A DNA stretch of 64,000 nt from an uncultured virus (IMG/VR IMGVR_UViG_2912869438_000005) (Duplodnaviria > Heunggongvirae > Uroviricota > Caudoviricetes). Positions 1,720 to 63,412 of this stretch are shown piece by piece. The notes under the pieces were generated by a model. That model did not search any database and was not told where the DNA came from. It was given only the letters and a program-made list of their open reading frames with translations. The stretch lies in IMG/VR virus record IMGVR_UViG_2912869438_000005, positions 62,001-126,000 of that record; one strand, 5' to 3'. Numbering within the stretch: the first letter of the stretch is position 1; each line of letters opens with the position of its first letter. Made by a program: the position numbers and the translations under genes.

Positions 1720-2031
1720 ATGATAAATCAAATGGATAACAGCTCAACTTCAGTCAGATCTTTAATTTTTAGCACGCATATCGAAAGATTGAAAGAGTTG
1801 CTGTTTAAACTGCATGATGGATCAATTACAAAAGAAGAGCTCCGGGAATTATCCAAGATCCATTTAGAGTGTATGGAAATGACCGCGCATGTGGTTGGGG
1901 AAGCAAACGAATTTCTTTTAAAGTCTGATTTGCTTCCTGAAGACGATGCTAAAGAAATAAATGAGCTGCTACATAAGATCAAGGAAAGCAAAAAGGAAAA
2001 GAAAGATTTTTCTGATCAAGAATTAGAATAA
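1720..2031 (+). CDS. hypothetical phage protein (103 aa)
   Basis: ORF; its TAA stop is the first part of a TAAAA-N6-TTTTA site. Confidence 0.65.
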   Translation: MINQMDNSSTSVRSLIFSTHIERLKELLFKLHDGSITKEELRELSKIHLECMEMTAHVVGEANEFLLKSDLLPEDDAKEINELLHKIKESKKEKKDFSDQELE

Positions 2032-2066
2032 AACCAGTCTTTTAACGAAAGAGAGAGGAAAGGTTT

Positions 2067-3164
2067 ATGACAGGAGTTTTAAAAGAAAAAATTAAGAGTT
2101 TAATTGAACTTGGCTATGAAGGGGAGTATTGGGATTTTAAAGAAAAATGGCATGATGACAATGGGAAATTGGTACATGATATTTTATGTTTTGCTAATAC
2201 TTTTCATGACCATGATTGTTATATTATAGTCGGAGTTTCTGATTTAGGTGAAATTAAAGGTTTGGAAGAACATGAAAAGAAAAAACAAGCAAATCTAATA
2301 GATATGCTTAGAAATATTAGCTTTGCTGGTGACAGACCGAAAGTGTTTTTAAAATCATTATTAATAGATGGAAAATTCATTGATGTATTAATCATTCCAA
2401 ATTCAATAAATGTTCCTTATTTTTTGAGGAAACCGTACAGAAAAGTTAAGGAAGGATACATCTATACAAGAACTGGAGATAGTAATACTCCAATTAATCA
2501 AAATTCTTCAATATCAACCATTGAATCGTTATGGAAAAAGCGATTTGGCTTTAACAAAACAGGACTAGAAAGGTTCAGTCATCTTTTGAAAGATAAAGAT
2601 AATTGGAACTCCAATGATTATGGATACTATCATACTCTTAGTCCAGAGTATGCAATGAAATATAAGTTCTCTGATTCATTAAGAGAGACTATATCAGAGT
2701 TCTATTCTTATGTAATGTATAGTGAGCACACGTCAGTTGAGCAAATTGAGCTTGAAGTAAATGGCACAGTTCTTAAGGAAATAGAGTTAATAACATTAGA
2801 TAGCGGGAGGTATACCACACCTTCGCCAGAGTGGGGTTATATCAAATTCAACTTCAATGATGTATTTGATTTTAAGTATTTTATAGTCGATGACCTTAGA
2901 TATAATTTACATTCTTTCTTTATTGATGAAGAAAGCGAAGATGGAATGATCGCTTACAAAAATTTCATGGAAGTTACTTTAACGTTTAAAAACAGTATTG
3001 AGAAAGAAGATTTTGTAAATTTCGTTTATCACAAAGAGGCTGATTTCAAGAATAAGCTTGAACATGAATCTAAGCAATATTTTAAAACGGATAACGAAAT
3101 ATTCCAAAGAAGGATTGTAACAGCTCGCATATTAAAACAAATGCTTGAAGAATTTCGAGGTTAA
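2067..3164 (+). CDS. Schlafen/AlbA_2-domain protein
   Basis: EGEYWDFKEKW ... DILCFAN ... YIIVGVSD ... IYTRTGDSNTP motifs typical of AlbA_2. Confidence 0.8.
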   Translation: MTGVLKEKIKSLIELGYEGEYWDFKEKWHDDNGKLVHDILCFANTFHDHDCYIIVGVSDLGEIKGLEEHEKKKQANLIDMLRNISFAGDRPKVFLKSLLIDGKFIDVLIIPNSINVPYFLRKPYRKVKEGYIYTRTGDSNTPINQNSSISTIESLWKKRFGFNKTGLERFSHLLKDKDNWNSNDYGYYHTLSPEYAMKYKFSDSLRETISEFYSYVMYSEHTSVEQIELEVNGTVLKEIELITLDSGRYTTPSPEWGYIKFNFNDVFDFKYFIVDDLRYNLHSFFIDEESEDGMIAYKNFMEVTLTFKNSIEKEDFVNFVYHKEADFKNKLEHESKQYFKTDNEIFQRRIVTARILKQMLEEFRG

Positions 3165-3469
3165 AAAACTACGATTTTTCAAGAAAGTGTTGGTGAATAC
3201 AATGGTAAAAATGATTACGGTCTGGTACAAATACGATGATAAGCGAAGCGAAACTAAATCATATTGAAGATGGATGGATAAATGAAGACTATCCAAAACC
3301 CAAAGATCCATCATATTCAAATCAAGAAGCTTGGAAGAAAAGTAATTGGGAAAGGAAGCATGCCTATTTAGATGAACAATATCATGTGTTAAATGTTCCA
3401 CCAGCGAATTGGGTTAAATAATGAATAGTTTTAAACTCCAATTTGGAGCTTTAGGAGGGGAGTATACAA

Positions 3470-3685
3470 ATGATCAAGGTTTACACAATAGGTCATGAGA
3501 TACCAAAAAAAATTAAGTCCTGCATTTCTGAATGGAATTACTGGAATTGGATTGTTACTGCAAATACACCAAAGAAAAACAAGGATGCTAAAGAGATCAT
3601 TAACAAAATTGAGCCTGATGCTGATAAAGTTGCAGTATTTAAGAACGGCGATGTTGATGTTAGCTACATGTTTCCCGTTAAGTAG
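3470..3685 (+). CDS. hypothetical protein (71 aa)
   Basis: ORF with strong AGGAGG RBS. Confidence 0.65.
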   Translation: MIKVYTIGHEIPKKIKSCISEWNYWNWIVTANTPKKNKDAKEIINKIEPDADKVAVFKNGDVDVSYMFPVK

Positions 3686-3736
3686 CTTTAAATAAAAGAA
3701 GCATTTTAACCTAACCGGGCAACAGAAGAAGAGAGG

Positions 3737-3916
3737 CTAAATGCTCTTCTTCATCCCGCAGCGGCGACATTCACGCAGGAATATACCGTCTTTGACTGAG
3801 CTCTTGAAAAGTGTATAGTCGCAATTGTCGCAGCGGCCGTAATGTACATCAGGATACTCTTTATAATCGTAGACAATTGAAGTATCATAACCCTTTGTTT
3901 CAAACTCTTTCTCCAT
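3737..3916 (-). CDS. small Zn-ribbon protein, 59 aa (not in ORF track)
   Basis: MEKEFETKGYDTSIVYDYKEYPDVHYGRCDNCDYTLFKSSVKDGIFLRECRRCGMKKSI; GAAGGTG RBS; two CxxC motifs. Confidence 0.75.
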   Translation of the reverse strand: MEKEFETKGYDTSIVYDYKEYPDVHYGRCDNCDYTLFKSSVKDGIFLRECRRCGMKKSI

Positions 3917-4008
3917 GAAATCACCTTCATAAAATAAAGTCAGCTTTATAAGAATAACAAACCTTGATACTCAAATACAGATCTATTTTAAAGAAATGGG
4001 GAGATCAA

Positions 4009-4670: not shown

Positions 4671-4735
4671 TTCTTTACTTTGTTGTATAATGGTAATCAG
4701 ATAAAATAATCATTTTACGTAGAGAGGGGTTAAGC

Positions 4736-5638: not shown

Positions 5639-6508
5639 ATGAAAGTGGGTATTGCTTTGAATGTCGAAAATGTGCTTAAGAAGATAACCCCTAATAACCA
5701 TAATATAATTTCAACTAGATATCATCGAATTGTACGCTCAATCAATTCATATTATTGGGGAATAGATTCTAGTCGACAGAATTGCAGATACGTAGGATCT
5801 TATGGGAGAGGAACGGCTATTGATGGATTTTCAGATGTAGATATGATAGTTGTTTTGCCTGAAACGTATTATGAAAGGTTTAGAAAGTACCAACATAATG
5901 GTCAATCGGCACTTATTCAAAATGTCAAAAGGGCATTGAATTTTACTTATTCCCGTTCCTTCACTAAGGGAGATGGACAAGTGATAGTTATTGAATTTTC
6001 AGACGGGATTAAGTTTGAAATAGTCCCAGCATTTAAGATAAAGGACACATATACTTATCCGGATTCTAATGAATCGGGTAGTTGGAAAAAATGCAATCCT
6101 CTAAAAGAAATTGAAGCTGTTAATCTTATTAATAAGTATCATAATGGGAAGCTGAAAAACTTATGTAAACTTACTAGAGCTTGGAAAAAAGAAAACAACA
6201 TAAACATCTCAGGAATACTAATTGATGCATTAGCCGCGATGTATATGTTGTATCTAAAGGAAGAGCAAAAATCTTGGGACTACAAGTTTTTGTTTACTGA
6301 CTTCCTAAATTATTTAGGTAGTCAGTTTCAAAAAAACAGTTGGCTGATTTGTGGAAGTTGGGATGTAATTCAAAGAAACAATATGGAGTTTGAAGATTGT
6401 GCTCTTCAATCAGCTAGTTATTGCATAAAAGCAATGAAATATGAATTCGATAAAGATTATAGCTTAGCGGATACGTATTGGGAAAAAATATTTGGAAATG
6501 TTATATAA
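5639..6508 (+). CDS. SMODS / CD-NTase-like nucleotidyltransferase
   Basis: VGSYGRGTAIDGFSDVDM (GS...DxD), GDGQVIVIEFSDGIKFEIVPAF, YPDSN.SGSWKKCNP. Confidence 0.88.
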   Translation: MKVGIALNVENVLKKITPNNHNIISTRYHRIVRSINSYYWGIDSSRQNCRYVGSYGRGTAIDGFSDVDMIVVLPETYYERFRKYQHNGQSALIQNVKRALNFTYSRSFTKGDGQVIVIEFSDGIKFEIVPAFKIKDTYTYPDSNESGSWKKCNPLKEIEAVNLINKYHNGKLKNLCKLTRAWKKENNINISGILIDALAAMYMLYLKEEQKSWDYKFLFTDFLNYLGSQFQKNSWLICGSWDVIQRNNMEFEDCALQSASYCIKAMKYEFDKDYSLADTYWEKIFGNVI

Positions 6509-6518
6509 GGAGTGGGCA

Positions 6519-7090
6519 ATGGAAAATAATATTCACAATATTTTAGACACATTTGGAAAAATAGTATACACTCATAAAACTCATGAAAAGGCTATTGAAA
6601 GAATTGAAAAAAAGATTAGTAGACTGAAAGTTTTTCAGATTATTTTACTTTCATTAACTACTGTTGGCGTTGCTTCATCATTCACAGATGTGCTTTCACC
6701 TTTGATCTCGAATACCTCAACAATATTTCATTTTGTGAATATAGTGGTGTTGATTATTTCATTAGTTGCAACCTTCCTATCTGTTTATGACATGTCTAGT
6801 TCAGATAGAGATATACTATATGATCATAAAAACACAGCCAAACAACTTTTATATATAAGAGAGCAATACTTAATTTTAATAGCAGACTATAAAGATTCTG
6901 CAGTCAACACAGATGAATTAATAAAAAAAGAAATGAACTACTCGAAAAGCTTACCAATCTGTATAACAATGCTCCTTCTACAACTTCAAAAGATTATAAA
7001 AAGGCTCAAAAATCGTTGAAAGATGAAGATGAATTTACTTTTGAAGAAGGGGAAGTTAACAGATTTTTACCTCCATCAATGAGAGGTTAA
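6519..7090 (+). CDS. SLATT-type two-TM effector, frameshifted at A7 (6923-6929)
   Basis: FGKIVYTHKTHEK and two TM helices; the -1 frame supplies the family-typical C-terminus RNELLEKLTNLYNNAPSTTSKDYKKAQKSLKDEDEFTFEEGEVNRFLP to TAA 7090. Confidence 0.78.
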
Positions 7091-7108
7091 AAAAATAATG
7101 AAAGGTTT

Positions 7109-7720
7109 TTGTATATGGAGAATCAAATAGTAAATGTGATATGGAATATATGGAGCTGGTTTCTTTCTAACACGGGAAGCTTGGGGATGTTTGTTTTAAC
7201 AATTTTTATTGCATATTACTCTAAAAAATCTTCAAAAGCTAGCTTAGAAGCTGCTCAACTAGCTAAAAAAGAGTACGAAAGTAAAAAGGAACCAGAAATA
7301 ATAATCTATTTTGAGTTAAATGAATTTAGGCTGGATTTTAAATTGAAAAACATTGGAAACGGTGTTGCAACCAATGTAATTATCAAATTAGAAGAAAAGA
7401 GCGGTAATTTCCACAACAGCTATATGCATAAAATGGAAAACGGAATCTTTAACACCAGTATTCTGACATTTGCTCCTAGTCAAGAAATCAAAGGTATTGC
7501 TGCTGAAGTTTCTGATATTAAAGGTGATTCTGGATATCCAGTATTCACATGTAATATCAATTACCATGATAAGAATGGAAGATTGTACAATAAAAGTTAT
7601 GACTTTGATTTGAATTATATAGCCGGACTAGTTTGGACTAAAAAAGCTACCTTAGATAAGGTTGCTGAAAGTTTAAAGGGGATTGAAAAGGAAATAAAGA
7701 AACTTCATTCCAAGTCTTAA
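7109..7720 (+). CDS. membrane-anchored hypothetical protein (203 aa)
   Basis: N-terminal TM segment followed by a soluble beta-rich domain. Confidence 0.7.
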   Translation: MYMENQIVNVIWNIWSWFLSNTGSLGMFVLTIFIAYYSKKSSKASLEAAQLAKKEYESKKEPEIIIYFELNEFRLDFKLKNIGNGVATNVIIKLEEKSGNFHNSYMHKMENGIFNTSILTFAPSQEIKGIAAEVSDIKGDSGYPVFTCNINYHDKNGRLYNKSYDFDLNYIAGLVWTKKATLDKVAESLKGIEKEIKKLHSKS

Positions 7721-7811
7721 TTTTGTGAGGGTTCTTCTTTTAAATTTATTTTATTTTAATTTTACGCTCTTTCAATAAAATAATTGTTTTAAAGTCATTT
7801 GGAGGTGTTTC

Positions 7812-8027
7812 ATGAGAGACGATGAGCGAATTAACAGAATTGCAGGGGTGATTACTCAAATATGGGAGCAGCAGCACGACAAAAGCTTTTTGCAACTCAT
7901 TGAGACTTTGAAAAGTGACTACATTATGCGGCAGACTGGATATGTAGAGAAAGAAGTCTTTATTATGGATGATGAGTTTGAGATGTTCCTAAAAGAGCAT
8001 CTTAATAACGTAATAGGAGAGAGGTAG
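7812..8027 (+). CDS. hypothetical phage protein (71 aa)
   Basis: GGAGGTG RBS; lies between palindrome copies 7776 and 8037. Confidence 0.75.
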   Translation: MRDDERINRIAGVITQIWEQQHDKSFLQLIETLKSDYIMRQTGYVEKEVFIMDDEFEMFLKEHLNNVIGER

Positions 8028-8213
8028 ACTTAACAATAAAATTGTTCTTTTACACATGAAAGGAAATACATTGATAAAAATGATTATATTGTAACAAAAG
8101 GTGTTTACATACATTATACTATAGGTTAATATAATCTTGTGTTTTAGTGAGAAGGGGGGGAATGAGGTTATTTATTTGAATTTTTAAATATTGTTTGTGA
8201 GAAGGAAGCCTGA

Positions 8214-9146
8214 ATGAAAAGATCGAAGATTGTGTTTCTATTTGTTTCTTGCTTATTTGTGATTTTTGCAGTTGGCTTATATTTGATGTGTATTGGTGAT
8301 ATTTCTAAAGATAGGAGTGCTACATCTAGTACAAATAAGAAAGAAGACCTGATGTGGGGGTATGAAATTATTGGCCAAGAAGCGCGCAATAATGATACAG
8401 AGCCTGTCAAAATAGCTATTCTTGATAGTGGCATTAATAAGTCACATAAAGAGTTTAATAATATAACCTTTTATGAATTCAATGCTATTGCCCCTAGTAA
8501 ATCCGTTAAAGATGAGTATGGTCACGGTACAGCAATTGCTGGAATAATAGCTGCAGGCGGTGAAGAGATAAAAGGGATTTCACAGAATGCTACTTTATAT
8601 GATGTTAAAGTACTAGATAGTAGTGGTAAAGGCAAAGTTAAGGATGTTGTTAGGGGAATCAATTGGTGTATTGAACAAAAAATAGATATTATTAATATAA
8701 GTTTTGGATTTGAAAAAGACTACGATGACTTGCGTAATGCTATTAACAATGCTTTACATAACAACATAATTATTACTGCTGCCTCTGGAAATACTTTAGG
8801 CCTTACTGTTGAATACCCAGCGAAATATAGAGGAGTCTTATCTATTTCCTCTTTTGATGAAAAATTGAAAATTGATCCGGTATCAGCAAAAGGCAAAATT
8901 GATTTTTCAGCTCCAGGAGTAAATATAAAATCAATAAATAAAGACGGAAGTTATATAAAGGTAGGAGGCACATCCTTTGCAACTGCGTTTGCAACTGGTG
9001 CTATTGGCTGTTTAATTTCAAAAAAGAAAATATCTAAAGAAAATTTTCATCAAACACTCAAGAAGTATGCGGTTGATTTAGGTAGTTCCGGGTATGACAA
9101 AGAGTTTGGTCATGGAATGATTATTTGTAACAAAGGAGAGAAGTAG
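8214..9146 (+). CDS. S8 subtilisin-like serine peptidase, membrane-anchored or secreted
   Basis: Catalytic motifs IAILDSG, GHGTAIAGII, GTSFATA; N-terminal hydrophobic segment. Confidence 0.93.
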   Translation: MKRSKIVFLFVSCLFVIFAVGLYLMCIGDISKDRSATSSTNKKEDLMWGYEIIGQEARNNDTEPVKIAILDSGINKSHKEFNNITFYEFNAIAPSKSVKDEYGHGTAIAGIIAAGGEEIKGISQNATLYDVKVLDSSGKGKVKDVVRGINWCIEQKIDIINISFGFEKDYDDLRNAINNALHNNIIITAASGNTLGLTVEYPAKYRGVLSISSFDEKLKIDPVSAKGKIDFSAPGVNIKSINKDGSYIKVGGTSFATAFATGAIGCLISKKKISKENFHQTLKKYAVDLGSSGYDKEFGHGMIICNKGEK

Positions 9147-9147
9147 T

Positions 9148-10008
9148 GTGAAAAAGACTTTAATAAGAATTCTTATATTTACGTTAGTTTTATCTGGGGT
9201 TTTACCTGGGTTTGCAAGCGCAGAAACAATTGAAAATAAAATTGAGAACGATACCAAAACTGTAGGTATTGAAGAAAATACAAATAAAGCGTATGAAGTA
9301 AATGTTGAAAAAGAGTTTGGGGTTGCTCTTGAAAAAGATATTGAGATGGCTGTTGAAGAAAATTCAGATGAAGTGAATGTTACTACTAAGCTTGAAGCTG
9401 AGAATACTAATATTCAAACTGATATGAATATTAATCAGGAAACCGGTGAAATCACAGTTACTGGTATTAGAGAATTAGAAAACGGTGAAAAAGAAATTAA
9501 CCATTACAATGTATTGATTGAAGAGATTGAGGGGACTGATTTTAAAGCTACGTTTGTGGATCAAAAAACGGGCGAACATTATAAAATTAGCACCTTAGAA
9601 GCTCAAGCTTCCATCGTCCCTGCAATAATAGTTGGAGTTGTTGCTAAGTTTGGTATAAAGTGGGCTATTAAAAAATACGGGAAAAAACTTATTATAAAAA
9701 CATTTAAAAAAACAGCAATTAAGCAGGCTATAAAAAAAGTTTCAAAGTTTTCTGTTAGCAATAAACATCTCAGTAATGCCGGAGGTAGATACAGAAAATT
9801 TAATACTACAAGTAAAAGCACAGTGAATAAATGGATAAAGGAGGCTTTACAATCCAAGAATCTTTCCTTTACTATAAATGATAATAAAAAATTATCATTT
9901 GTCATCACTGCAAATTTAAAAAAGAAAATCGGAACAAAAGGTGAGACAAAAATAAAAATAGTAATAGGATGGGATGGTAAGATATGGACGGCGTATCCAA
10001 TCAAGTAG
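9148..10008 (+). CDS. secreted polymorphic-toxin-like protein (SAR2788-like architecture)
   Basis: Signal peptide, acidic beta domain, EAQA-SIVPAIIVGVVAKFG hydrophobic helix, basic C-terminal domain ending GWDGKIWTAYPIK. Confidence 0.72.
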   Translation: MKKTLIRILIFTLVLSGVLPGFASAETIENKIENDTKTVGIEENTNKAYEVNVEKEFGVALEKDIEMAVEENSDEVNVTTKLEAENTNIQTDMNINQETGEITVTGIRELENGEKEINHYNVLIEEIEGTDFKATFVDQKTGEHYKISTLEAQASIVPAIIVGVVAKFGIKWAIKKYGKKLIIKTFKKTAIKQAIKKVSKFSVSNKHLSNAGGRYRKFNTTSKSTVNKWIKEALQSKNLSFTINDNKKLSFVITANLKKKIGTKGETKIKIVIGWDGKIWTAYPIK

Positions 10009-10454: not shown

Positions 10455-10501
10455 TTGAAGAAAAGAAGCCTTTGTTTTTTAGGGCTTCTTTTCTTCAATC
10501 A
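10452..10501. terminator. long hairpin terminator
   Basis: 19-bp perfect inverted repeat tgattgaagaaaagaagcc / ggcttcttttcttcaatca. Confidence 0.8.
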
Positions 10502-10582
10502 TCAGTTATAGTGAAAAGAACTATGTAACGCTTATTCTTTAATAAAATACGAATTTTATTAAAACTAATTAAAAGAAATATA

Positions 10583-10611
10583 TTGACCGTTTGGATTTAG
10601 AATGCTATTAT
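10583..10611 (+). promoter_or_regulatory. sigma-A promoter of aimR
   Basis: TTGACC-17 bp-TATTAT with extended -10 TG; AATTAAAAG box at 10567. Confidence 0.65.
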
Positions 10612-10634
10612 AAACATATATTCTAAGGGGAAAC

Positions 10635-11804: not shown

Positions 11805-11835
11805 TTCTAGACTGCATTGAAAGGAGGTGAAGAAT

Positions 11836-11949: not shown

Positions 11950-11986
11950 TACATAACAATTAAAAGTTTAGTTTCACTACATAATT

Positions 11987-12423: not shown

Positions 12424-12426
12424 ATA

Positions 12427-17694: not shown

Positions 17695-17765
17695 GCAAAT
17701 TAAAAGTAAATAAAAGAATATTTTTATACAAATTAAAAGGGGGAATACATATAACTTCAATTACA

Positions 17766-18929: not shown

Positions 18930-19195
18930 CTTTTAAATAAAATTGAAGTTTTAAACAAATTAAAAGGAGTAATATCTACGAGAGAATACTTGTGCATGCA
19001 AGATTGGGGAATTGACAGTGGCATTTATTTTGAAAAAGGGAAGAAATACGAGGGCATACCTAGTAAAGACGGAAGATCAGTTAAAATGTTTGGGGAAGTA
19101 GGTATGGTGATAACTTTTCATGAGGGAAGTAAGTACTTTAAAATTTAAATTTTTAATAAAAAGATTGTTTTAAAGAGAATTGGAGATAGTGAGAT

Positions 19196-20125: not shown

Positions 20126-20301
20126 TTCTAGATACAAGGATTATTTTATCCAAAGAGGGGATGAAAGTATCGGTTACATCAAATACATATTTGAAACAGC
20201 ATGGTTTAACTTAGTATGGTTTAAATGGCATTTGGGAGCAGATATAAAAGCGTTTGAGAATTGCAGCTGGAAAGACTATATAGATTCCAAGAGGAGGGAC
20301 A

Positions 20302-21885: not shown

Positions 21886-21976
21886 AAACACGTAATGCAG
21901 AGATAGATTAAATTAAAATCGTCATTTTAAACAAATTAAAAGAAAAGATGGATTTATCGAGTGGAAGGAGGATTAT

Positions 21977-22381
21977 ATGGGTTTAGATGTAACACATGGC
22001 GCCTTCAGCGGGGCATACTCGGCGTTTAATAATCTTAGAAGGTTTTTATTAAGATCAATTGGAGGTAGTTGGCCACCTCATGATGATAAAAAATTAAAGG
22101 ATGGCTATTGGTATTTTGGTGAGGGCTATTCCACAAAAACGCATAAGGGACTAACTGAGTTTTTCGGTCATTCAGATTGTGATGGTGAAATTAGTCCTGA
22201 AATGTGTAAATTTGTTGCGGATGAGTTAGAAGCCATCTTGCCATATGTAGAAGAGTTGGCTAGAAAAGAAATGCCTCATGGTCATATATTACGTGATGGT
22301 GGATACATAGTGTGCACAAAACAGTTTATTGCTGGCTGCAGACTAGCACATGAATTAAATGAACCATTAGAGTTTAGATAA
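21977..22381 (+). CDS. conserved phage protein (HSDCDG motif)
   Basis: AAGGAGG RBS; bracketed by palindrome copies 21914 and 22379. Confidence 0.8.
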   Translation: MGLDVTHGAFSGAYSAFNNLRRFLLRSIGGSWPPHDDKKLKDGYWYFGEGYSTKTHKGLTEFFGHSDCDGEISPEMCKFVADELEAILPYVEELARKEMPHGHILRDGGYIVCTKQFIAGCRLAHELNEPLEFR

Positions 22382-22422
22382 AAGCATGTTTTTATCTGAA
22401 AATAAATTAAAAGGAGAGAATC

Positions 22423-23286: not shown

Positions 23287-23410
23287 CTCCTATTCTTGTA
23301 TTAGGAATACGATGTAATTATATGTAAATTGATATTGGGGAGAAAGGTGCTTAGGAACAGTATTTACGGAACAAAATAAAATAGTTATTTTATTATGAAG
23401 GAGGAATTGT

Positions 23411-24798: not shown

Positions 24799-25055
24799 GC
24801 AAGCTTTCCGTATTAAAATTCAGTAGAGATATCGGGAAACCATTTAGTCAATTGGTGTTTGTTATTAATGAGTTGTCTTTTGATTACAAATCGAAAAGAG
24901 AGCTGCTGCAACAAATTGAAAAAGTCCGGTTTAGTTAAAACAGAAATTTTATACAAATTAAAAGTGAGTAAACAAGGTGGGATAGAGGATGCAGCAGTCG
25001 GATACAGGGAAAAACAGATCAAACAATGGTTACAAGATGACGGGAGGTAAGGGGA

Positions 25056-26330: not shown

Positions 26331-26444
26331 ATAAAAACAATCTTTTATTTAAAAAGGAGAGATGTTTTTAAAAAAATAACATTAAAAAGGGACAATGAGC
26401 AATCAAAGAAGGGAACTGTATAAACAGCTCCCATAAGTTGATGT

Positions 26445-42181: not shown

Positions 42182-42901
42182 GTGATGGAAATTTTCAAAA
42201 AACTGATAGACTCAAACAAATTAAAAGTATATAATAGATACAAAGAGTTGCAGATCTATTCTGTAATCTTTCTATTGGGGGTGGGATCAACATTAGGCTA
42301 CAAGATGATAGAGGAACATATCCAGCAGCAAAAGAAGGTTTCAATAAAAGAGCCATTTTATAAAAAACCAGACTTCATTCGTGAAGTGAAGTTTGAAAGG
42401 CAGGTGCTGCCTCATTTAGAGACTCGCCAAGAGATTATTGAAAAGGCACAAGATAAGTATTTACATATTAAAGTAGAAGAAGTTAAAAAAAATAAACCAA
42501 AAAGCAAATTAAAAGAAAATAAAAAGAGGGAACTTTCTTTCAAACCCAAGCAAAAGACTCAAAAGAGGCCTCACGAACAAAATCAAGCCATTAAAATGGA
42601 GGCCACGGCTTATGTTCCATTTTGCGATACTGGCTGTATAGGGACAACTAAAACAGGCTATGACGTATCAAATACAATTTACTATAAAGGGAAAAGAGTG
42701 ATTGCAGTTGATCCATCTGTAATTCCTCTGCACTCTTTAGTGAAGGTATCTTATAATAACGATTCGTTTGAGGCTTATGCTATAGATACAGGAGGTGATA
42801 TTAAAGGGAATCGAATCGATCTTCTTGTTCAATCAGAATCAATCGCAAGAGACTTTGGTCGAAGAAATGTTGATGTGAGTATCATTACAAAAGGGAGCTG
42901 A
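42182..42901 (+). CDS. 3D-domain cell-wall protein (YorM-like); true start likely downstream of 42235
   Basis: MEATAY, IAVDPSVIPL, AIDTGGDIKGNRIDL; N-terminal TM. Confidence 0.85.
   Translation: MMEIFKKLIDSNKLKVYNRYKELQIYSVIFLLGVGSTLGYKMIEEHIQQQKKVSIKEPFYKKPDFIREVKFERQVLPHLETRQEIIEKAQDKYLHIKVEEVKKNKPKSKLKENKKRELSFKPKQKTQKRPHEQNQAIKMEATAYVPFCDTGCIGTTKTGYDVSNTIYYKGKRVIAVDPSVIPLHSLVKVSYNNDSFEAYAIDTGGDIKGNRIDLLVQSESIARDFGRRNVDVSIITKGS
42207..42235 (+). promoter_or_regulatory. repeated sigma-A promoter with AATTAAAAG operator (copy 2)
   Basis: TAGACT-caaacaaattaaaagta-TATAAT. Confidence 0.8.
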
Positions 42902-44398: not shown

Positions 44399-44707
44399 AA
44401 GATTTACCCCCTAGGTTTTGATTGAGTTACAAGTCTAGTATATCATGTAAAAATTTAGTAATGTGTGAAGTGTTTGTGAAACTGAATAAAATATCAATTT
44501 TAAACAGACTATAAAAGAGAAAGGTAAGTGAATTTGGGAGAGAATTATTTTAGAGTATTGTGGAATGGAACAAGGGTTAATCTTAAGTTTCCAACTAAAC
44601 AGAAAGCTATTGCATACATAAACAGAAGAAGAGCATTTAATTGTGAGATTCAAGAGCGAACACAAGATCATAAGCTTGTGAACAGTTGGATCATCCATAC
44701 ATATTGA

Positions 44708-46520
44708 TTGGGGGAGGGTACTATCAACTACTACGCTTATAATTTCATATTAGATAACTTAGATTTGATCGAGAAAAGACTTGATGATCTTCATACATAT
44801 CTAGAGAATACTTTTACATATGAGGAAAGAAAAGTGTGGAATCGTGCTGACAAGGATTTGATTTTTGCACTTATGAAAATCGAAGAAATTAAAAACGACA
44901 TTCGCTAATTTTTTATAGACAAACACAAATTAAAAGTATATAATTATTTTCATAGTTAAGAGGTATTTATGAACTACATATGCGATATTTGCAGTGGCTA
45001 TACAACTCACCCAATGTGCATAAGGATTTCTGAAGAGAAAATAAGGACAGCAGAGGACAAAATTGAAATCAACTGCTGTAAGAATTGTGGCGAGGCTCTT
45101 TTCAAAAGAGTTAAAAAAGAGTGTAAAGGAATGACTATAAAGAAAACTTTAAACCATTTAAGTCTAATTAAACAAATTAAAAGAAATTTAAGATGTGATT
45201 AGAGTTAAGGTAGTCATTGGTTGATTGAAAAATGGGAGGTAAAACACCTAAAACAACAGGAGCGGACTCAATGATTCAACTTCCACTGAATGAAAAGAAA
45301 TACGGGAAATAGGGGAGTTATTCCCCTTTAAATTTCCTAAGAAAGCGCATATAACCACAAATGTAAACAAAAGGAGAGAATGTGAATGAGCAATGAGCAA
45401 TGAGGAATGGGGAGTAGAAGTTTATTCTGGTTATGATTATGTTGGGAAAATGACAGAAGCAAATGGTGATGTAGCGGTTTTTGACAAAGGGGAAAAAGCG
45501 ATGGCGGTAGCTCAAAAATTTAAAACAGCTAGTTCACTGGGCATCTGGTGTAAATTGGTGAAGCTTAATAGGGAGGGGCATCATGCAATCTGAATTCAAA
45601 GTATTTAAATTCAATGATTATGATAGTGCGGCAGCCGTTAGCGAAGAAGCAGGAAGAAAAGCTTACTTAGAGTTCACTGGGTTATCTGAAGAAGAGGCGT
45701 TTGACGAGGCTGTTTACGATGAAATAGATCCAAACTGCAATCGTGTTATCGTAAGCGAACCGGGACAGGAAGTAATAAAATTAACATATATAGAAGCTTA
45801 TGAAAAAGGATATTTTACCTTACCTGCATTTTTCACAACTGAGTATTGATTTAAATGAAATTCAAATTTTATTGAGAGGGAGGCTAATGTATGAAAAATA
45901 AATTAAAAAATGCAGTGCACTATATTGAAGCAAACAGAGATGAAATGGGCGATAAGAAAGCACTTGATTTGCTCATTAAAGCTCTTAAGAAAATTGCTGC
46001 AGAAGCGTTTGTTTGATTTAAAGGAGGCGATGGTTTGACAAGACATAAAGCAAAATTTACGGGTCAAATTTTATACAAGAATTATATGTTTAATGTACAC
46101 CCTATGTTGTTTTCTAAAGATGTTGAAATATGTGAAGTCCTTAAGCCTTTTATTAGTGCTATATCTGCATACGATAAACATGGAGTTTATTCATTTGTAG
46201 ATCACTCTATTGGTGAAAAGAAGATATTTTTTGAAGGGGAGATAGACGGAGAACCTATCAATGTTGGTGAAAAAGTTTATATTAAAGGTATAAATGATTA
46301 CATTGTTATTAAGGACAGATATCGAAACCTCAATAATGAATGGACGTATGAAACAGATCACATTGTTAAGATTATTGAAGATGAAGAAACAATTTTAAGC
46401 AAAGAATGGGCAGTTAAACAGTATGAAGAAGCTCTTATGGATATTGAGCATGAAAAGAGATATGAAAATGCAGATGCAGTTAAGGCTAATAAATCCTGGT
46501 TGAAACGGCTGTTTAATTAA
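44708..46520 (+). CDS. cluster of small hypothetical genes (44708..44908, 44969..45202, 45393..45593, 45583..45849, 46035..46520)
   Basis: Co-oriented ORFs with RBSs. Confidence 0.65.
44916..44944 (+). promoter_or_regulatory. repeated sigma-A promoter with AATTAAAAG operator (copy 3)
   Basis: TAGACA-aacacaaattaaaagta-TATAAT. Confidence 0.85.
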
Positions 46521-46898: not shown

Positions 46899-47056
46899 AA
46901 GGAGCTGAATAAATGTCTAATGTGAATATAAAAGATTCTGCAATGATTGTTTTTAAAAAGAGTCCATCTGGAGAAATAGTGGATGAAATAAAGGTGGTTA
47001 CTATGCCGTCGAAGATAGCTGGTCAAAAGTTTTATTTTAACTAAAAAACAAAAAGG

Positions 47057-47743: not shown

Positions 47744-47801
47744 TTGGTGCCCTACATAGTTTAAATAAAAGGATGATTTTAAAGAAAGAGGAGGAAAGCC
47801 C

Positions 47802-48738: not shown

Positions 48739-49276
48739 ATGTATACACCTGCCTTTCAAGGTAGAATATGTGTTCCTTCACAATATATAGTATACTACCA
48801 TTCAGGGAAACACAATATACTGTGCTCGAGTTGATGAATGTTCACAGTTTGCTTTAGCTAGGAACCTGTGGATAGGAGCTAAGCATTTATTAATGATCAG
48901 TAAAGGGAGGTGAAGTACAAAGTTATCGTGTATTTAGGTGGAATTACGGATTTATAGGGAGGTATGATCTCATGGAACTTGAAGCTAGATTGAAAATACA
49001 CAAAGATTCAGACAATACACATCCACAAGGGAAACTCATCGTAAAACCAAACGGAGAGTATGTAAACCTTAAATTTGATGATTATGGTCGTGAAGTTTCA
49101 GTATTGGCTGATGAATTAAGAGCCGTGCTTAATATAGGGAAATGAAAGGAGGAAGATTATGAGTAACCATTTCAAATTTAAACTGTCAAATATCGAAAAT
49201 GGTGATTTGATTCTAATAATCTAAATAAAATCATAATTTTATATACTAATTAAAAGTAATCTAAGGAGGAAGAGTT

Positions 49277-55114: not shown

Positions 55115-55823
55115 AAAAGAACTAGTCGGAAGTGTGTTCTCAAATAACCATGGTCAGAAATATAAGGTTCTACGGGTAAATGGGCAAAAGAAAAACGGAA
55201 CAAAATTGTTTAGAATACGATTCATAAAAACCGGATATGAACGAGATGTAGAAAAAGTTGAAATAATTCGTGGAAAAATAAAAGACCGATATGAACGATC
55301 TGTGTTTGGAGTTGGATATCTTGGTGACGCAAAGATGTCAGATGTGAAAAATGTATACTCCGTTTGGAAGGGGATGCTAGAACGTTGTTACGATCGTAGT
55401 TGCTCACAGTATTCTAACTATGGCGGTTCAGGGATTAGAGTTTGTGAGAGATGGTATTGTTTCAAGAATTTTCTCGAAGATGTTTCAAAGATAGAAGGAT
55501 ATGATGAGGATCTTTTCAATAACCGAAAGCTCTTTCTCGACAAAGACATAAAACAGCAAAGAACACCGAAAAGCCAAAAGATTTATTCCCTGGAAACTTG
55601 TTGCTTTGTCACTAGGGAAGTCAATAATGCTTATCGAGATTTACCGAATACTCGTGTCCACTTTATAGCTAAATCCCCTGATGGTGAAATTATACGAGCA
55701 GAAGGACTTCGTCCTTTCTCTGAAAAATACGGACTGCATCGCCCAATAATAAAGAAATGTTTACGAGGGGAACGCTCGAACTATAACGGATGGACTTTTA
55801 AACTGATTAAGGAATCGAATTGA
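55089..55823 (+). CDS. free-standing HNH-like homing endonuclease
   Basis: [38 protein letters not shown]...[10 protein letters not shown]-terminal NUMOD-like DNA-binding segment. Confidence 0.8.
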
Positions 55824-55860
55824 AAAAACAAAAGCGCTTAAAGCAAAAGGAGGTATCACT

Positions 55861-56115
55861 ATGATGAAATTAATCAAATTAGAACAGCCTTCATGCACCC
55901 CTTGTCAATTAGTCTCTAATTATCTAAAAGAAAAAGGGATTGAATTTGAGGCGATTGATGTTACTGTACGGCCAGAAGTAGCAGCAGAGTATGGAGTGAT
56001 GGGAGTTCCCGTCACTATCCTACTCGATGGAGAAGGTAAAGAAGTAAAACGCAGCAGCGGTTTTAAGCCAAATGAATTAGATGAATTAATTTTTAAAATC
56101 GAAAACTATAAATAA
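55861..56115 (+). CDS. thioredoxin / NrdH-like redoxin (YosR-like)
   Basis: CTPC motif, GVPV. Confidence 0.9.
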   Translation: MMKLIKLEQPSCTPCQLVSNYLKEKGIEFEAIDVTVRPEVAAEYGVMGVPVTILLDGEGKEVKRSSGFKPNELDELIFKIENYK

Positions 56116-56152
56116 TGGGGTTTTTTTAATGAGAATTAAAAGGGGAGATTGA

Positions 56153-56539
56153 ATGTATTTCATTGAAAAACAAGAAGAATTAATCGGAAAAGAAATTGCT
56201 TATGTCTGGGCAAATCAGTTTTGTGAACAAACAACTATCATTACAAAAGATAAAGGTGTATTTATGGTTTGCCAAGAAGTTGGCTGGGACGATGGAGATA
56301 AAGAGACAAGAGTATTTTATGCACATGAAGCCAAGGAAATATTATATCCTCTTAGAAGAGAATTGCATACAAAAGGAATCATTGACGAATCTGAGTGGGG
56401 AGAATATGAAAAAGAATTGAAAAAGAAACAGGAAGCTGAAAGGGAAAGATTCCGTAAAAAACAAGAAGAAAGAGAACGTAAACAGTATGAGGAGTTGAAA
56501 GCAAAGTTTGAAAATCAGGCAGAGCCAATTAAGGATTAG
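56153..56539 (+). CDS. hypothetical phage protein (128 aa)
   Basis: ORF with RBS. Confidence 0.75.
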   Translation: MYFIEKQEELIGKEIAYVWANQFCEQTTIITKDKGVFMVCQEVGWDDGDKETRVFYAHEAKEILYPLRRELHTKGIIDESEWGEYEKELKKKQEAERERFRKKQEERERKQYEELKAKFENQAEPIKD

Positions 56540-56867
56540 GGGGAATAAATAATATCTAAGTGGAAAGTTGATTTTTTTATTGAAGAATTAACCGATCTTG
56601 ATTTTTTTTATCCAACTACTGTAAGCTCGCACACTAACTTAGATTTGGATATTGTATTTGAAAGACTTATGGAATTAACGCTTGATTGCAAACTAACATT
56701 GAAGTTTGAATGGAGGACAGAGGAAGGCACTAAGATTCTTGATTTGGATAGAATCAATAATTTATTTAAATTAAAGAGGCATGATCAAATACCTCTACAT
56801 GAATTATATCCTGTGTTCCAAATTTCCGAAGAATATAAAAGACACTTAAATAAAAGGAGCTTGAAAA

Positions 56868-57302
56868 ATGACACTACAAATCAAAATCAAATATGCAGAC
56901 GAAAAACAAACGCGCATTTCAAAAATCGAACAGGGTGATTGGATTGATCTGAGGGCTGCGGAAGATGTATCTATTCCAAAGAATGAGTTTCAATTGATTC
57001 CTCTCGGAGTAGCGATGGAATTGCCTGAAGGGTATGAAGCCCATGTCGTTCCTCGTTCAAGTACATATAAAAATTTCGGTATCATTCAGACAAATTCAAT
57101 GGGTGTGATTGATGAGTCATACAAAGGGGACGATGATTTCTGGTTCTTCCCAGCTTATGCGCTACGAGATACTGAAATTAAAAAAGGAGATCGGATTTGT
57201 CAATTCAGAATTATGAAGAAGATGCCTGCAATTGAATTGGTCGAGGTAGATCATTTAGGTAACGAAAATCGCGGAGGGCACGGTTCAACGGGCACTAAGT
57301 AA
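56868..57302 (+). CDS. dut: dUTPase
   Basis: [30 protein letters not shown]. Confidence 0.95.
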
Positions 57303-57397
57303 TTTATTAATTCCTAGATAATGAGGATCTCTTTATCCTGAAACTTTGATAAAGCATTAACGTATTACATTATAGTGGAAATAAGGAGGTTGCTTAT

Positions 57398-57580
57398 ATG
57401 GGATTAAATTTCTTTAATATAGAGCTAATATGCTCTAACTGCGGAAAAACATTAAAATCAGGCGATGAGATAGTAGCTCATATTACACTTCCAAGTGAGA
57501 AGAAGATGCCTGTGGGGAGAATGGACAGAGTGTTAAGCAAACACTCTGATAAGGTTTACTGTAAAAAGTGTAGCGAGTAG
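57398..57580 (+). CDS. small Zn-finger protein
   Basis: CSNC...YCKKC; AAGGAGGT RBS; terminator hairpin at about 57583-57615. Confidence 0.7.
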   Translation: MGLNFFNIELICSNCGKTLKSGDEIVAHITLPSEKKMPVGRMDRVLSKHSDKVYCKKCSE

Positions 57581-57625
57581 ATTTTCTGAGGAAGCCCATT
57601 AAAGCTTCCTCAGAACTAATATTAA

Positions 57626-57790
57626 TCAATTTAAATTAGAGAAAAGCGAAATAGTAATGACTAAAGTTGATAAAGAGCCTAAAGACATCAAAGAGATCAT
57701 TTTTCGTTTACTTTGCTCTTTTGAAGGTTTACTTAGCTCGTGGATGACTGCACCCCATAAAAGCATGGATGCCAAAATGATAATACTCAT
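57626..57790 (-). CDS. 54-aa two-TM protein (not in ORF track)
   Basis: MSIIILASMLLWGAVIHELSKPSKEQSKRKMISLMSLGSLSTLVITISLFSNLN; converges on the terminator. Confidence 0.6.
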   Translation of the reverse strand: MSIIILASMLLWGAVIHELSKPSKEQSKRKMISLMSLGSLSTLVITISLFSNLN

Positions 57791-57891
57791 GTCTAACGGA
57801 GCTCCTTTACTTATTTTTTATAATTTTACCACATATAGGACAGAGATGCCGATCTAATAAACATCGCTATAAAAGAAGACTTTTATCGTAA

Positions 57892-58197
57892 TTGTTAAGG
57901 AGGTGCAAAATGAAGAAGATAGATGAAATAAAGCAACACTTAGAAAAAATTAATAAGCTAGAACAAACATTGGCTGTTTTTGAGGAGTCAGACGAATTAC
58001 ACCTTGACGTGCTTCATAAAATCCAGGGGGAATTTGATGAGATCAGTGATTTAGCTTTGAACGCTTTTCGAGAATTAACTGAAAAAATACGCAATGTAGG
58101 AAGCAAAACAATCAACAATAAAATTAAAGCTTTACCCAATACAGTACAGAAAAGTGTCAAGGAGAATATGGATGAACTAATAAATGAATTAAAATGA
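57892..58197 (+). CDS. hypothetical coiled-coil protein (likely start 57910)
   Basis: AAGGAGGTG RBS. Confidence 0.7.
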   Translation: MLRRCKMKKIDEIKQHLEKINKLEQTLAVFEESDELHLDVLHKIQGEFDEISDLALNAFRELTEKIRNVGSKTINNKIKALPNTVQKSVKENMDELINELK

Positions 58198-61164: not shown

Positions 61165-61756
61165 ATCGGTTTTTAGGCGCTGACATCTATCTGCTGACAC
61201 AATTGATTCTGTATGAAATCTGTATTTTATTTAGATTAAGACACAAAAAATGAAGAGGGTTAACCTCTTCATCAGGTAGTTTTCTTCTTAGGTTCCCAAC
61301 TGCAGCCTAAAACTGAATTAATAGTCCCAGCTGTTAAGAATCCCAAAAAAACACCTAAGTAATGATTTATATTCACACTAAACCATACACCAAGAGAAAT
61401 AGCTGTGATTAGAATTTCAGAAATATTTTTAATAAATGGATGTGAATTGAAAAAATTTTAAAACATGTATTGCTCTCTTTCTGCTTTAATTTCTTAAATA
61501 GTGATTTTTTAAACAAAGTATGTAAATAAAAAATTAGGAATCAAGCACAAGGCCAGAAATTAAAGAAGAATACGATTATATTGACCAAACACTTATTTTT
61601 CTTTGTTTTGTGCTTATTTTGCCACAAGTTAATACACCTCTAGATGATATTTACATAGAAAATCATACCATTGAAAAATGTGATAGAAAAAGTGAGAGGG
61701 TTAAATGTAATGGCAGGGATTAGACAGGAGCATAAAAAGAGGGGATTTACCCCTCC

Positions 61757-61975
61757 TTAATGAAATTGACCGCCCATGTTCTGTTGAGCTAAGCGAACTA
61801 AACGTTTGGTGATTTCTCCACCAACCGAACCGTTTGCACGAGAAGTGGTCTCAGCACCTAATTGAACACCAAACTCAGAAGCTATTTCAAGTTTCATTTG
61901 TTCAATAGCTGAAGCTGCTTGAGGAATTAATAACTCGTTATTGTTGTTTGATCTTGATCTACTTTGTTGAGCCAT
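61757..61975 (-). CDS. sspC: alpha/beta-type small acid-soluble spore protein
   Basis: [13 protein letters not shown]...[33 protein letters not shown]. Confidence 0.96.
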
Positions 61976-62021
61976 CTTATTCATCTCCTAAAGTTTAATG
62001 AAAACAAGCTTGTTTGAATCA

Positions 62022-62050
62022 TATTATGGAGAGATTATTTTAATTTATAC
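62022..62050 (-). promoter_or_regulatory. sigma-G-type promoter of sspC
   Basis: GTATA-17 bp-CATAATA on the minus strand. Confidence 0.65.
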
Positions 62051-62094
62051 ACGCCAAAGAAATAAATTTTTTCATTAAGAAAGGTGGGGGACAA

Positions 62095-62910
62095 ATGAAA
62101 ATTGATTATGTATCAGATCTCCATATCAATCATTGGATTCCTTGGAATGTAAATCAGATCAAGTGGGAGAAGCAAACAAGGGAAATCGTAAATAGGTTGA
62201 TCTCAAACGGTAATGGGGAGGTGTTGGTCATTGCTGGTGATTTTACTGAATGGAATCAACAAGCCATTTGGGTTTTAGATGAAGTAGCAAAACAGTACGA
62301 GAAGGTTTACTTCACATATGGAAATCATGATCTTTATTTACTCAGTAAAAGTCAAAAAAGAAAATACTCTGATTCATTAGGCAGGGTGAATGATCTAATC
62401 AAAAAGGCTGCTGACATGAAGAATGTGACTCCGTTAGTCAAGTCAACGGATACATACAAAGGAAAAGTCTTTGCAGGAGATGTTATGTGGTATTTGCCAA
62501 AAGGAATTGAAGGGTGGGATTTCTTCAAAGGAGTCTCTAATGATTCAAACTACATTAGCATTAATGGTTACAGTAAAGAAGATGGAGTAAGAGCAATGTG
62601 GAAAGATTCGATGGATTGGTATGAAACGCTCGAAAACACTCATGTCGATGTGTTTGTTTCTCACGTCCCACCTGTTCACAATCCTTATTCTCCATTTGAG
62701 CCTAACAGTTGTTATATGGTCGATGTACCATTCATTAACGCTAAGCATTGGATTTGTGGGCATGAACATTTACAAACTGAGTTTGCGAAAGAGGGAGCAA
62801 GCTTTCATATGAACTGTATAGGCTATCCATATGACTATGATAAGTATCCTAGCGTAAGTGAGGAAGCGGATATCTATAAAACGTTTGAAGTCAAAACTTT
62901 TGAGATTTAA
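62095..62910 (+). CDS. metallophosphoesterase (YotB-like)
   Basis: SDLH, AGD, GNHD, SHVPP, GHEH. Confidence 0.9.
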
Positions 62911-63412
62911 ATTTGATTGAATGAAATTCTAATTTTATTAAGAAGAGAGGTGCAATAGATGAGTTGGGGTATATCATCAAATGCGGCAAATAAAGAGAAA
63001 TTGAAGGCTGAAATGGCTGATTACCTAAATGGTTTAAATTCAACAGGGATAATGAGTTATGAAGTATACAGTGAGGCATTGAGTGTCTCTATGAAATTAC
63101 TTGACAAAATGTATGACTTAGGAAAGTTTGAAAAATGACTTGATAAAATATTGATTTCATTTAGAAAGGTGGAAAAGTATTGACCGTTACAGCTTGGATT
63201 TTGTTGATTATGTTTGGTTTATTCGCCTTATCAGATTTGAACTTAACTGAAGATGAAACAAAGCATATCAAGTTCTTCATAATAATGAAATTTGTTTCTG
63301 TCTTTATAGCTGCTATAGCTGCAGGCGTGATTTGGGGAGGGCTATTTCAATGAGATTAATAAGGAGAATGACCGTTAATCTGCTTAATTAAAAATAAGAC
63401 AGGAGTGGTGGA

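Follow-up and report, generated by a model that had tools for sequence, protein, structure and literature searches.

Arbitrium signalling has its model phages in SPbeta and phi3T, and their repressor operon encodes two conserved proteins, YopP and YopQ, without known DNA targets. The parS sites, the Noc-binding sites and the operators of RK2 KorB are 13-16-bp palindromes, which occur in a dozen or more near-exact copies per replicon and are read by a ParB-fold protein. The attC sites of integrons span roughly 60-140 bp, in which an imperfect inverted repeat carries conserved core boxes. In T4-type phages, the intergenic elements named PeSLs (promoter-early stem-loops), a kind of mobile regulatory cassette, are described as a sigma-70-like promoter plus a terminator hairpin, and they recombine by homology (PMC2839356). 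In SPbeta and phi3T themselves, the SPBRE and Phi3TRE elements are described as asymmetric A-tract boxes, which are bound by a monomer, number approximately 10 copies, differ from phage to phage and are the operators of an integrase-fold repressor, SroF (MrpR) (PMC10516654; 10.1101/2025.11.27.690993). Here, another repeated element, i.e., the palindrome TAAAA-N6-TTTTA, was analysed in the IMG/VR record IMGVR_UViG_2912869438_000005, a 127,460-bp single-contig phage genome. The window, i.e., the whole stretch under analysis, comprises 64,000 nucleotides (bases 62001-126000) of this genome. The palindrome is strongly enriched in it, its spacing is strict, and it is tentatively read as a binding site of a symmetric phage protein.

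The initial annotation had listed 18 exact copies in the window. Each of them was confirmed at its coordinate and with its spacer, and a 19th copy that had been missed was found at 42345. A regex scan against a shuffled background, split into intergenic and coding positions, showed clear enrichment. The 19 exact copies compare with 1.13 expected (sd 1.10, max 5), and none of 100 dinucleotide-preserving shuffles reached 19. By crude open reading frame (ORF) calls, on which the intergenic/coding split rests, 17 copies were intergenic versus 0.38 expected (max 3) when the 8.6 kb of intergenic DNA were simulated 1000 times with a first-order Markov model. The two copies inside called ORFs were 42345 and 44487, and the gene call at the latter is ambiguous. 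In the whole genome, 29 copies were counted with the 6-bp spacer (N6) versus 0-4 copies with each of the other spacers in the 0-15 range, and the swapped arms, TTTTA-N6-TAAAA, occurred four times. The spacer had been described as constantly 6 bp and never repeated. This description held for the whole genome, in which the excess was specific to N6 and all 29 spacers were distinct. Within-genome spacers were all distinct in three genomes (29/29, 34/34, and 29/29), which is roughly the chance level given 4096 possible spacers.

Six one-mismatch copies had also been reported, and all of them exist as described, but the one-mismatch class as such was not enriched. At N6, 41 one-mismatch forms were counted in this genome versus 43-51 at other spacers, and 41 in SPbeta versus 41-60. 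The intergenic one-mismatch forms in the window showed no enrichment either, i.e., 7 versus 6-15 at other spacers. Four of the six (20133, 47024, 61214, and 62922) have exact counterparts with the same spacer in relatives. A fifth, 45856, has an exact counterpart in a relative with one different spacer base. We read these five imperfect copies as probable decayed or weakened forms of real sites. A published description of the palindrome was not found in the searchable literature, where a mere string of bases is not easily located. The initial finding is thus confirmed, and its support is greater than first stated.

The same element was found throughout the SPbeta-like lineage. SPbeta c2 has 34 copies at N6 versus 0-3 at other spacers, phi3T has 30 and SPbetaL3 has 36, and a reversed-pattern control gave 1-2. 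A 187-kb stretch of a Metabacillus contig with a prophage showed 29 copies versus 2-8 at other spacers. Because the whole 6.1-Mb Metabacillus genome contains 115 copies and the control gave 113, the excess is confined to the prophage. Of SPbeta-like IMG/VR loci (L016-L037 and L039), 23/23 had more N6 copies than the mean of the other spacers, whereas two distant non-SPbeta loci (L038 and L040) had 1 and 0 copies. SIOphi, an unrelated Bacillus phage of the Herelleviridae, had one copy, as did its control. The motif is a property of the SPbeta-like lineage and not of its hosts.

The anatomy of the element was derived from 92 sites in three genomes. The symmetrised half-site reads T(77%) Y T(67%) n a A(64%) TAAAA, and C and G are nearly absent at position -1. 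The flanks are themselves symmetric in the symmetrised profile and carry T at positions -6 and -4 and A at position -1. The extended element, TYTnaA-TAAAA-N6-TTTTA-TtnARA, has thus an 11-6-11 layout around a 6-bp centre without information. Relatives with 85-100% identity in the surroundings of the site gave 17 distinct aligned copies, in which changes were found at 0 of 170 arm positions and 9 of 102 spacer positions, and the flanks changed at 4-8%. Only the arms are under purifying selection. This phage and SPbeta share at least seven syntenic sites, whose spacers are identical in three cases and one base off in four.

Most copies lie 0-60 bp past a stop codon and about 18-47 nt ahead of the next start codon. 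By the crude ORF calls, the TAA of the motif is itself the stop codon in 25 of the 92 sites. The initial annotation had placed most copies between a stop codon and the ribosome-binding site that follows. This is true of most copies, but the element is not tied to a downstream ribosome-binding site. The -35 of the predicted aimR promoter (10583-10611) lies 24 nt downstream of the end of palindrome 10543, which is therefore outside the aimR transcript. In SPbeta, annotated terminator stem-loops precede the sites 76171 and 99498, and aimR and yorE come after them. Three SPbeta sites (39886, 92394, and 116415) are between convergent genes, and three others (57148, 92753, and 128077) are between divergent genes. 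The pairs of sites that were said to bracket single genes or modules do bracket them. The intervals 10559-17710 (aimR/sro), 26348-42344 (replication) and 49242-57869 (nrd) contain no copy, as had been noticed. From this placement, from the two-fold symmetry and from the conservation of the arms in sequence rather than in pairing, we infer that the element would be recognized on double-stranded DNA by a symmetric protein.

For mosaic junctions, 32 IMG/VR loci from approximately 20 contigs, many of them from the same contigs, were aligned to the window. Plus-strand alignment blocks of at least 85% identity and at least 150 bp were kept, ends at locus edges and small alignment breaks were dropped, and block ends within 6 bp of each other were merged into clusters. 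All 24 RNA runs found for 17000-26999 consisted of contigs. Those of X3, X7, X8, and X14, placed along 7500-27499, gave no positions at which molecules start or stop, since contigs do not show transcript ends, and their joints were taken as extra strain variants only. Of the block-start clusters, 10/48 fell at -6 to +2 of an exact site versus 0.17 expected at random positions. Of the block-end clusters, 6/45 fell at +4 to +33 versus 0.52 expected. At single-base resolution, unrelated sequence reaches the T of TAAAA at 10543, 18938, 21914, 23377, 24936, 47766, 49226, and 57870. Further block starts at the motif were found at 47765, 2027 (L054), and 7770/7776 (L052 and L053). In L018 and run X14, a 290-bp gene lies between two copies of the motif plus leader, at a place where the window has one copy.

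Motif-bearing gene boundaries were junctions in some relative in 12 of 16 cases, versus 29 of 68 motif-less boundaries. With the 32 loci, the Fisher p value was 0.026 for all gaps, 0.076 for gaps of at least 16 bp and 0.041 for gaps of at least 30 bp. A first test with 25 loci was not significant (9/13 versus 28/64, p = 0.13). The junction enrichment at the level of gaps is modest and depends on the data set. Motif-less junctions were equally sharp, i.e., the Shine-Dalgarno sequence or the start codon is the exact beginning of homology, and the stop codon its exact end. Therefore, gene-precise mosaicism is general and does not require the motif. The switch point was mostly the left edge of the element. 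It was inside the left arm at 23377 (L016 and L017), within the spacer at 17711 (L019), at the right edge for 24936 and 26332, and after the leader for 18938. Breakpoints inside the spacers had been anticipated for related genomes. The mosaic breakpoints do adjoin the motif, but they have no fixed position and fell in a spacer once. Inverted matches of at least 150 bp were absent from the 25 loci L016-L040, and all differences were collinear. The data fit recombination somewhere in a short shared element, or selection for intact gene units.

At the left end of the window, the palindrome 2029..2044 (spacer ccagtc) supplies the stop codon of ORF 1720-2031, and a Schlafen/AlbA_2-domain gene (2067-3164) starts 22 nt downstream. 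The next copies are 3693..3708 (gaagca) and 4702..4717 (taatca). The gene 7812-8027 begins 20 nt after the palindrome 7776..7791 (taattg), and the palindrome 8037..8052 (ttgttc) lies ahead of an S8 peptidase/DUF7878 module (8214-10454). For 10543..10558 (tacgaa), the block of L019 starts at 10541. The palindrome 17711..17726 (gaatat) precedes the helicase gene (17766-18929) and is followed by the box TACAAATTAAAAG. The copy 18938..18953 has the same spacer (ttgaag) as the syntenic SPbeta site 87599. Three relatives have differing downstream genes at this site, and a fourth has a differing upstream gene. The copy 19157..19172 has the spacer agattg, and the syntenic SPbeta site 88400 has agactg. 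At 21914..21929 (tcgtca), the block of L020 starts at 21914, and a contig joint connects 21929 to 23379. The TAA of 22379..22394 (gcatgt) is the stop codon of ORF 21977-22381. At 23377..23392 (tagtta), three relatives are homologous only rightwards from the site, and the left arm is imperfect in two of them. The copies 24936..24951 (cagaaa) and 26332..26347 (acaatc) follow, and alignment blocks end at 26354 beside the latter.

In the right part of the window, 42345..42360 (gagcca), within a yorM-like 3D-domain gene, is the only clearly coding palindrome. The copy in SPbeta yorM (111029) is located at the equivalent place and in the same reading frame (I-K-x-x-F-Y). The copy with the ambiguous gene call is 44487..44502 (tatcaa). 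The spacer of 47766..47781 (ggatga) is shared with SPbeta (118867) and SPbetaL3. The palindrome 49226..49241 (tcataa) lies ahead of a yosL-like gene (49277-49624), and 57870..57885 (gaagac) is ahead of the gene 57892-58197 and thymidylate synthase. The six one-mismatch copies are 20133..20148 (TACAA arm; exact with the same spacer in L016 and L017), 45856..45871 (TGAAA arm), 47024..47039 (CAAAA arm; exact with the same spacer at SPbeta 118470), 61214..61229 (TGAAA arm; exact with the same spacer in phi3T and SPbetaL3), 62922..62937 (TGAAA arm; exact with the same spacer at SPbeta 131162 and in phi3T and SPbetaL3), and 63144..63159 (TTTCA arm), which has one mismatch in relatives too.

Pfam scans showed that the gene order of the window is of the SPbeta type. 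AimR is encoded at 10635-11801, the replication block at 31319-42171, and the nrd genes at 49624-55111, which are followed by thymidylate synthase and dUTPase. The DNA polymerase gene has approximately 76% DNA identity to those of SPbeta and phi3T. The nearest genome in the species collection was the prophage of the Metabacillus isolate (79% protein identity of the polymerase), which was the sole locus obtained by the DNA polymerase search. With these identities, the phage is therefore a distant member of the SPbeta-like group.

Several other genes of the window were recorded as well. In the accessory region, 5639-7016 encodes an SMODS nucleotidyltransferase (E = 1e-38) and then a SLATT_4 two-transmembrane effector (E = 1e-23). 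By these domain matches, the genes are a predicted defence pair of the SMODS-SLATT kind or like the cyclic-oligonucleotide-based antiphage signalling system (CBASS). DNA polymerase III alpha is divided between ORFs 37218-39794 and 40801-42171, with an HNH/NUMOD homing-endonuclease gene (39927-40748) between them, and looks like an intron-bearing or a split gene. The nrdE gene (49982-53488) is broken between 50707 and 51131, and its second part holds an intein with a LAGLIDADG domain, like SPbeta bnrdE. An SspC-like small acid-soluble spore protein (61757-61984, minus strand) is 99% identical to the SPbeta copy, whereas most shared proteins are 25-88% identical. This suggests a recent transfer or else very strong constraint. 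The YosL-like protein resembled a MazE antitoxin model weakly (E = 5.5e-4), with a score that was far from reaching the cut-off. The YosL of phi3T is described as binding MazF (PMC10769878).

Candidate readers of the palindrome were sought among 41 ORFs that are common to this phage, SPbeta and the Metabacillus prophage. The DNA-binding candidates among them were the HU-like YonN and the proteins of the sro operon. Two sro proteins on the plus strand were kept as candidate readers, i.e., a YopP-like, Xer-like integrase-fold protein (12795-13886) and a YopQ-like DndB/DGxHR (ParB_N-like) protein (13957-15330). The YopP-like protein had weak, sub-threshold scores to the XerA, XerC and XerD models, and its Pfam Phage_integrase match was also below threshold. 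No IntI-type integrase was found, as the best XerA/integron-integrase score of the YopP-like protein was 46.9 bits against a cut-off of 220. The full catalytic set of a tyrosine recombinase is R-K-H-R-H/W-Y. In the alignment, this protein retains Arg-I, Lys, His-II, His-III, and Tyr, and the position of Arg-II holds Lys in the window and in SPbeta, and Arg in the Metabacillus copy. The YopQ-like protein matched Pfam DndB (E = 1.9e-12), the DGQHR model was sub-threshold, and the DGxHR motif was conserved in the alignment. Identities to the SPbeta and Metabacillus prophage copies were 42% and 24% for YopP, and 42% and 31% for YopQ. A phmmer search of both proteins against solved structures returned nothing useful, and the search with a two-sequence alignment of YopQ found only relatives of 93-100% identity. 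As candidate readers, YopP or YopQ could plausibly sit as a dimer on the 11-6-11 palindrome.

Both proteins are mentioned in earlier studies. YopP was described as XerC-like and YopQ as ParB_N_Srx-like by Brady et al. (PMC8612738). In the account of Kohm et al. (10.1101/2021.11.22.469490), yopP, yopQ and yopR are listed as core genes transcribed in the dormant prophage. In a 2025 preprint, SroE is described as a second repressor of unknown mode of action (10.1101/2025.11.27.690993). As the operon has six genes, named sroA-F and yopM-R, SroE should be YopQ. This is probably the case if the sro letters follow the gene order.

Two other proteins were set aside. The SroF/MrpR-like master repressor (15337-16335, plus strand), which was assigned to the repressor operon by Pfam, is not expected as the reader, as its SPbeta and phi3T homologues bind a different asymmetric box. 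The YonK homologue, outside the window (genome 42357-42548, minus strand), was dropped because it is a small acidic protein and DNA binding was judged unlikely from its charge. YonK is 90% identical to the SPbeta protein and 85% to the Metabacillus protein. Among the shared proteins, only SspC has a higher identity to its SPbeta copy, and none has a higher identity to its Metabacillus copy. YonK matches the solved structure 2h4o, which has no named function. The Metabacillus prophage stretch has a second MrpR/SroF-like gene (L010 ~14188-17697; meta coordinates 172177-173085; 28% identical), which is approximately 55 kb from the first.

The identity of the palindrome with known boxes was also considered. 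It is not SPBRE/Phi3TRE, the SroF/MrpR operator, as the phi3T box is a different, asymmetric 26-mer bound by a monomer. At SPbeta yorE, aimR and yosX, A-tract sequences adjoin the palindromes and are not within them. We take these A-tract sequences to be probable SPBRE. The SPbeta palindromes no more than 140 bp upstream of these three genes concern 3 of the 10 target genes found by chromatin affinity purification sequencing (ChAP-seq) of MrpR, and yorM is described as another of the ten. In this phage, five palindromes directly precede a strand-biased box, ACAAATTAAAAG. A second repeat, (A)AACAAATTAAAAG, was counted 25 times on the plus strand and twice on the minus strand of this genome, versus 2 and 3 times in SPbeta and 5 and 4 times in the Metabacillus stretch. 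Its window copies are 10570-10582, 17728-17740, 18955-18967, 21931-21943, and 24953-24965, and approximately 20 more are on the plus strand of the genome. Several copies adjoin -35-like or -10-like hexamers, e.g., ...AAAAGTATATAAT and ...AAAAGAAATATATTGAC, and five come directly after a palindrome. The repeat may be this phage's own SroF-type repressor box.

Other identities were rejected. The two features annotated as 'palindrome' in the SPBc2 record differ from the motif in sequence, and 2 of the 34 SPbeta sites are inside annotated stem-loop features. The promoter of YonO was rejected, as SPbeta has no palindrome between 57148 and 69424. YonO was reported to initiate late transcription from one site upstream of yonK. 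In 7001-27000, sigma-70-like promoter matches were not enriched (70 versus 75.3 expected), and terminator-like matches numbered 12 versus 8.3 expected. None of the 12 palindromes in this interval coincided with a promoter- or terminator-like match, the aimR promoter being downstream of 10543. The start site of YonO in SPbeta is presumably near 60 kb. The ComK-box, i.e., A4-N5-T4, was rejected because the N5 spacing shows no excess.

Tentatively, and with real doubt, we favour a reading in which the palindrome is an operator or 'punctuation' site for a predicted dimeric phage protein, possibly the YopP or YopQ homologue, and also favours modular exchange. A phage-encoded symmetric dimer would contact both invariant arms, one helical turn apart, and leave the 6-bp centre free. 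The most likely readers would be the Xer-like YopP and the ParB/DndB-like YopQ homologues of the lysogeny (sro) operon. Approximately 30 sites, which lie at the edges of accessory units and surround the aimR-sro, replication and nrd operons without entering them, would serve as a genome-wide operator or boundary mark, for silencing, as a roadblock or for loading. Secondarily, the motif would be a favoured, non-obligatory place for joining modules, as with the T4 PeSLs, because it is the sole sequence common to otherwise unrelated gene junctions. A dimeric regulator site had been named as the main alternative to recombination in the initial annotation, and it fits at least as well. Several points weigh against this reading. 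All-or-none exactness without an excess of one-mismatch forms is unusual for operator sets and commoner in enzyme recognition. ParB/KorB-type sites normally have conserved centres, and the centre here is free. The motif is identical in three phages despite a reader identity of 24-42%. The helicase junction occurs in close relatives with the site, with a degenerate copy or without the site. As sites turn over among relatives in this way, no single site is essential. Finally, the ChAP-seq of MrpR is described as giving about ten SPBRE peaks, in an account that concerns MrpR only.

The exactness of the arms would suit a recombinase. The palindromes could be core sites of an enzyme of the tyrosine-recombinase type, with YopP as the candidate, that swaps, inserts and deletes cassettes within and between SPbeta-like phages. 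The initial annotation had preferred such a reading. The symmetric 11-6-11 geometry resembles Xer/dif-type sites, the phage encodes integrase-fold proteins, and the YopP-like protein has weak Xer-family matches and keeps its catalytic residues except Arg-II, which the Metabacillus copy keeps too. Sites are concentrated in accessory regions, block starts (10/48) and ends (6/45) cluster near them, boundary junctions (12/16 versus 29/68) lean the same way, and the 290-bp gene of L018 and X14 lies between two copies of motif plus leader. However, no spacer-fixed crossover was seen. Motif-less boundaries are junctions almost as often and equally sharp, the enrichment over gaps is weak, with p = 0.13 for 25 loci and p = 0.076 for gaps of at least 16 bp, and selection for intact gene units would also leave sharp junctions there. 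Where in the element a junction falls is variable, and in the 25 loci only collinear changes and no inversions were found. All-different spacers block classical tyrosine recombination, and the spacers within each genome are all different; they evolve at the rate of the flanks, unlike conserved 'addresses'. Arg-II is Lys in this phage and SPbeta. Thus, the sharpness of motif-less junctions, the variable switch point and the lack of inversions leave integron-like crossover sites that shuffle cassettes as a claim that the data did not establish, and the recombinase is unlikely. It is quite unlikely that YopP, a near-complete tyrosine recombinase in the lysogeny operon of every SPbeta-like phage, pairs or cuts equivalent sites in co-resident phages or prophages, so that single genes and modules would be exchanged without flanking homology and the 6-bp centre would decide the partners. 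If true, a large temperate phage would thereby contain a cassette system of the integron kind.

The element lies on the 5' border of gene units, and its distance to the start codon is commonly 18-47 nt. Such a position would also suit a phage-specific transcription signal, i.e., a compact promoter for each accessory unit or a factor-dependent pause or termination site. Homology in relatives often begins exactly at the left edge, as if the element were the first functional part of the unit, and phage-specific promoters are typically near-invariant. Perfect two-fold symmetry is, however, of no obvious use to a promoter, and sites were also seen where convergent genes end and ahead of the aimR promoter, which is of the normal sigma-A type. 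Among the 178 ORFs scanned, none had a sigma-factor domain, sigma-70-like matches were not enriched, and the presumed YonO start region of SPbeta has no palindrome. The transcription signal is accordingly held to be decidedly unlikely. A site read by a conserved host protein, or through DNA shape by phased A/T tracts, for compaction, replication or packaging, would explain the identical motif in phages of different host genera. The A4-N6-T4 pattern is a phased tract, and the phage encodes an HU-like protein. Yet neither the Metabacillus chromosome outside the prophage nor another Bacillus phage shows an excess, and the exact outer T and A plus the strict N6 exceed what shape needs, which makes this explanation very unlikely. 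The location between a stop codon and the following ribosome-binding site, with the TAA used as stop codon in 25/92 sites, could point to an element acting in mRNA, i.e., a UAAAA-N6-UUUUA hairpin or a protein site that guides processing, stability or translation of the next gene. But the arms are conserved in sequence and not merely in pairing, an RNA signal needs no symmetry, and several sites are probably untranscribed or lie at convergent or divergent junctions. The five A-U pairs are rarely lengthened by the flanks and are unstable by our estimate. The mRNA element is highly improbable.

Compared with known systems, the palindrome shares features with each and differs from each. The integron attC/attI system also has single genes or small modules between repeated inverted-repeat sites, but here there is no IntI-type integrase, attC structure or attI/Pc platform with a common promoter, genes are on both strands, and breakpoints are not fixed. 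The element is 16 bp (28 bp with the weak flanks), AT-only and a perfect palindrome with a free centre, and it is thus not an attC site. The core sites of tyrosine recombinases have inverted arms of about 11-13 bp around a 6-8-bp spacer. With the Xer/dif, Cre/lox and FRT-type sites, the element shares two ~11-bp inverted arms around a 6-bp spacer, with the spacer-adjacent bases most conserved, and an Xer-like protein is encoded nearby in this phage. It differs by approximately 30 sites per genome with all spacers distinct. Moreover, no fixed-crossover product was seen in the compared loci, and the candidate enzyme has Lys for the second catalytic Arg. The ParB-family sites are likewise scattered palindromes at varying promoter distances, and the ParB_N/DndB-like YopQ is encoded here in the repressor operon, whereas their centres are conserved and the centre here is free. 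SPBRE and Phi3TRE are repeated AT-rich intergenic elements of the same phages, and some copies neighbour palindromes. The palindrome, however, is symmetric, has approximately 30 copies and is identical across the phages examined.

The T4 PeSLs are likewise short conserved intergenic elements that occur many times in variable regions and border small accessory ORFs. Either kind of element delimits the insertions, deletions and replacements by which close relatives differ, here with junctions at 12/16 motif-bearing boundaries and also at 29/68 motif-less ones. The SPbeta element differs as a 16-28-bp AT-only palindrome with a free centre, and in 7001-27000 it coincides with no promoter- or terminator-like match. 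It marks many seams of a gene-by-gene mosaic and could explain the reshuffling of accessory and defence genes, for which it would be a compact analogue of the T4 PeSLs.

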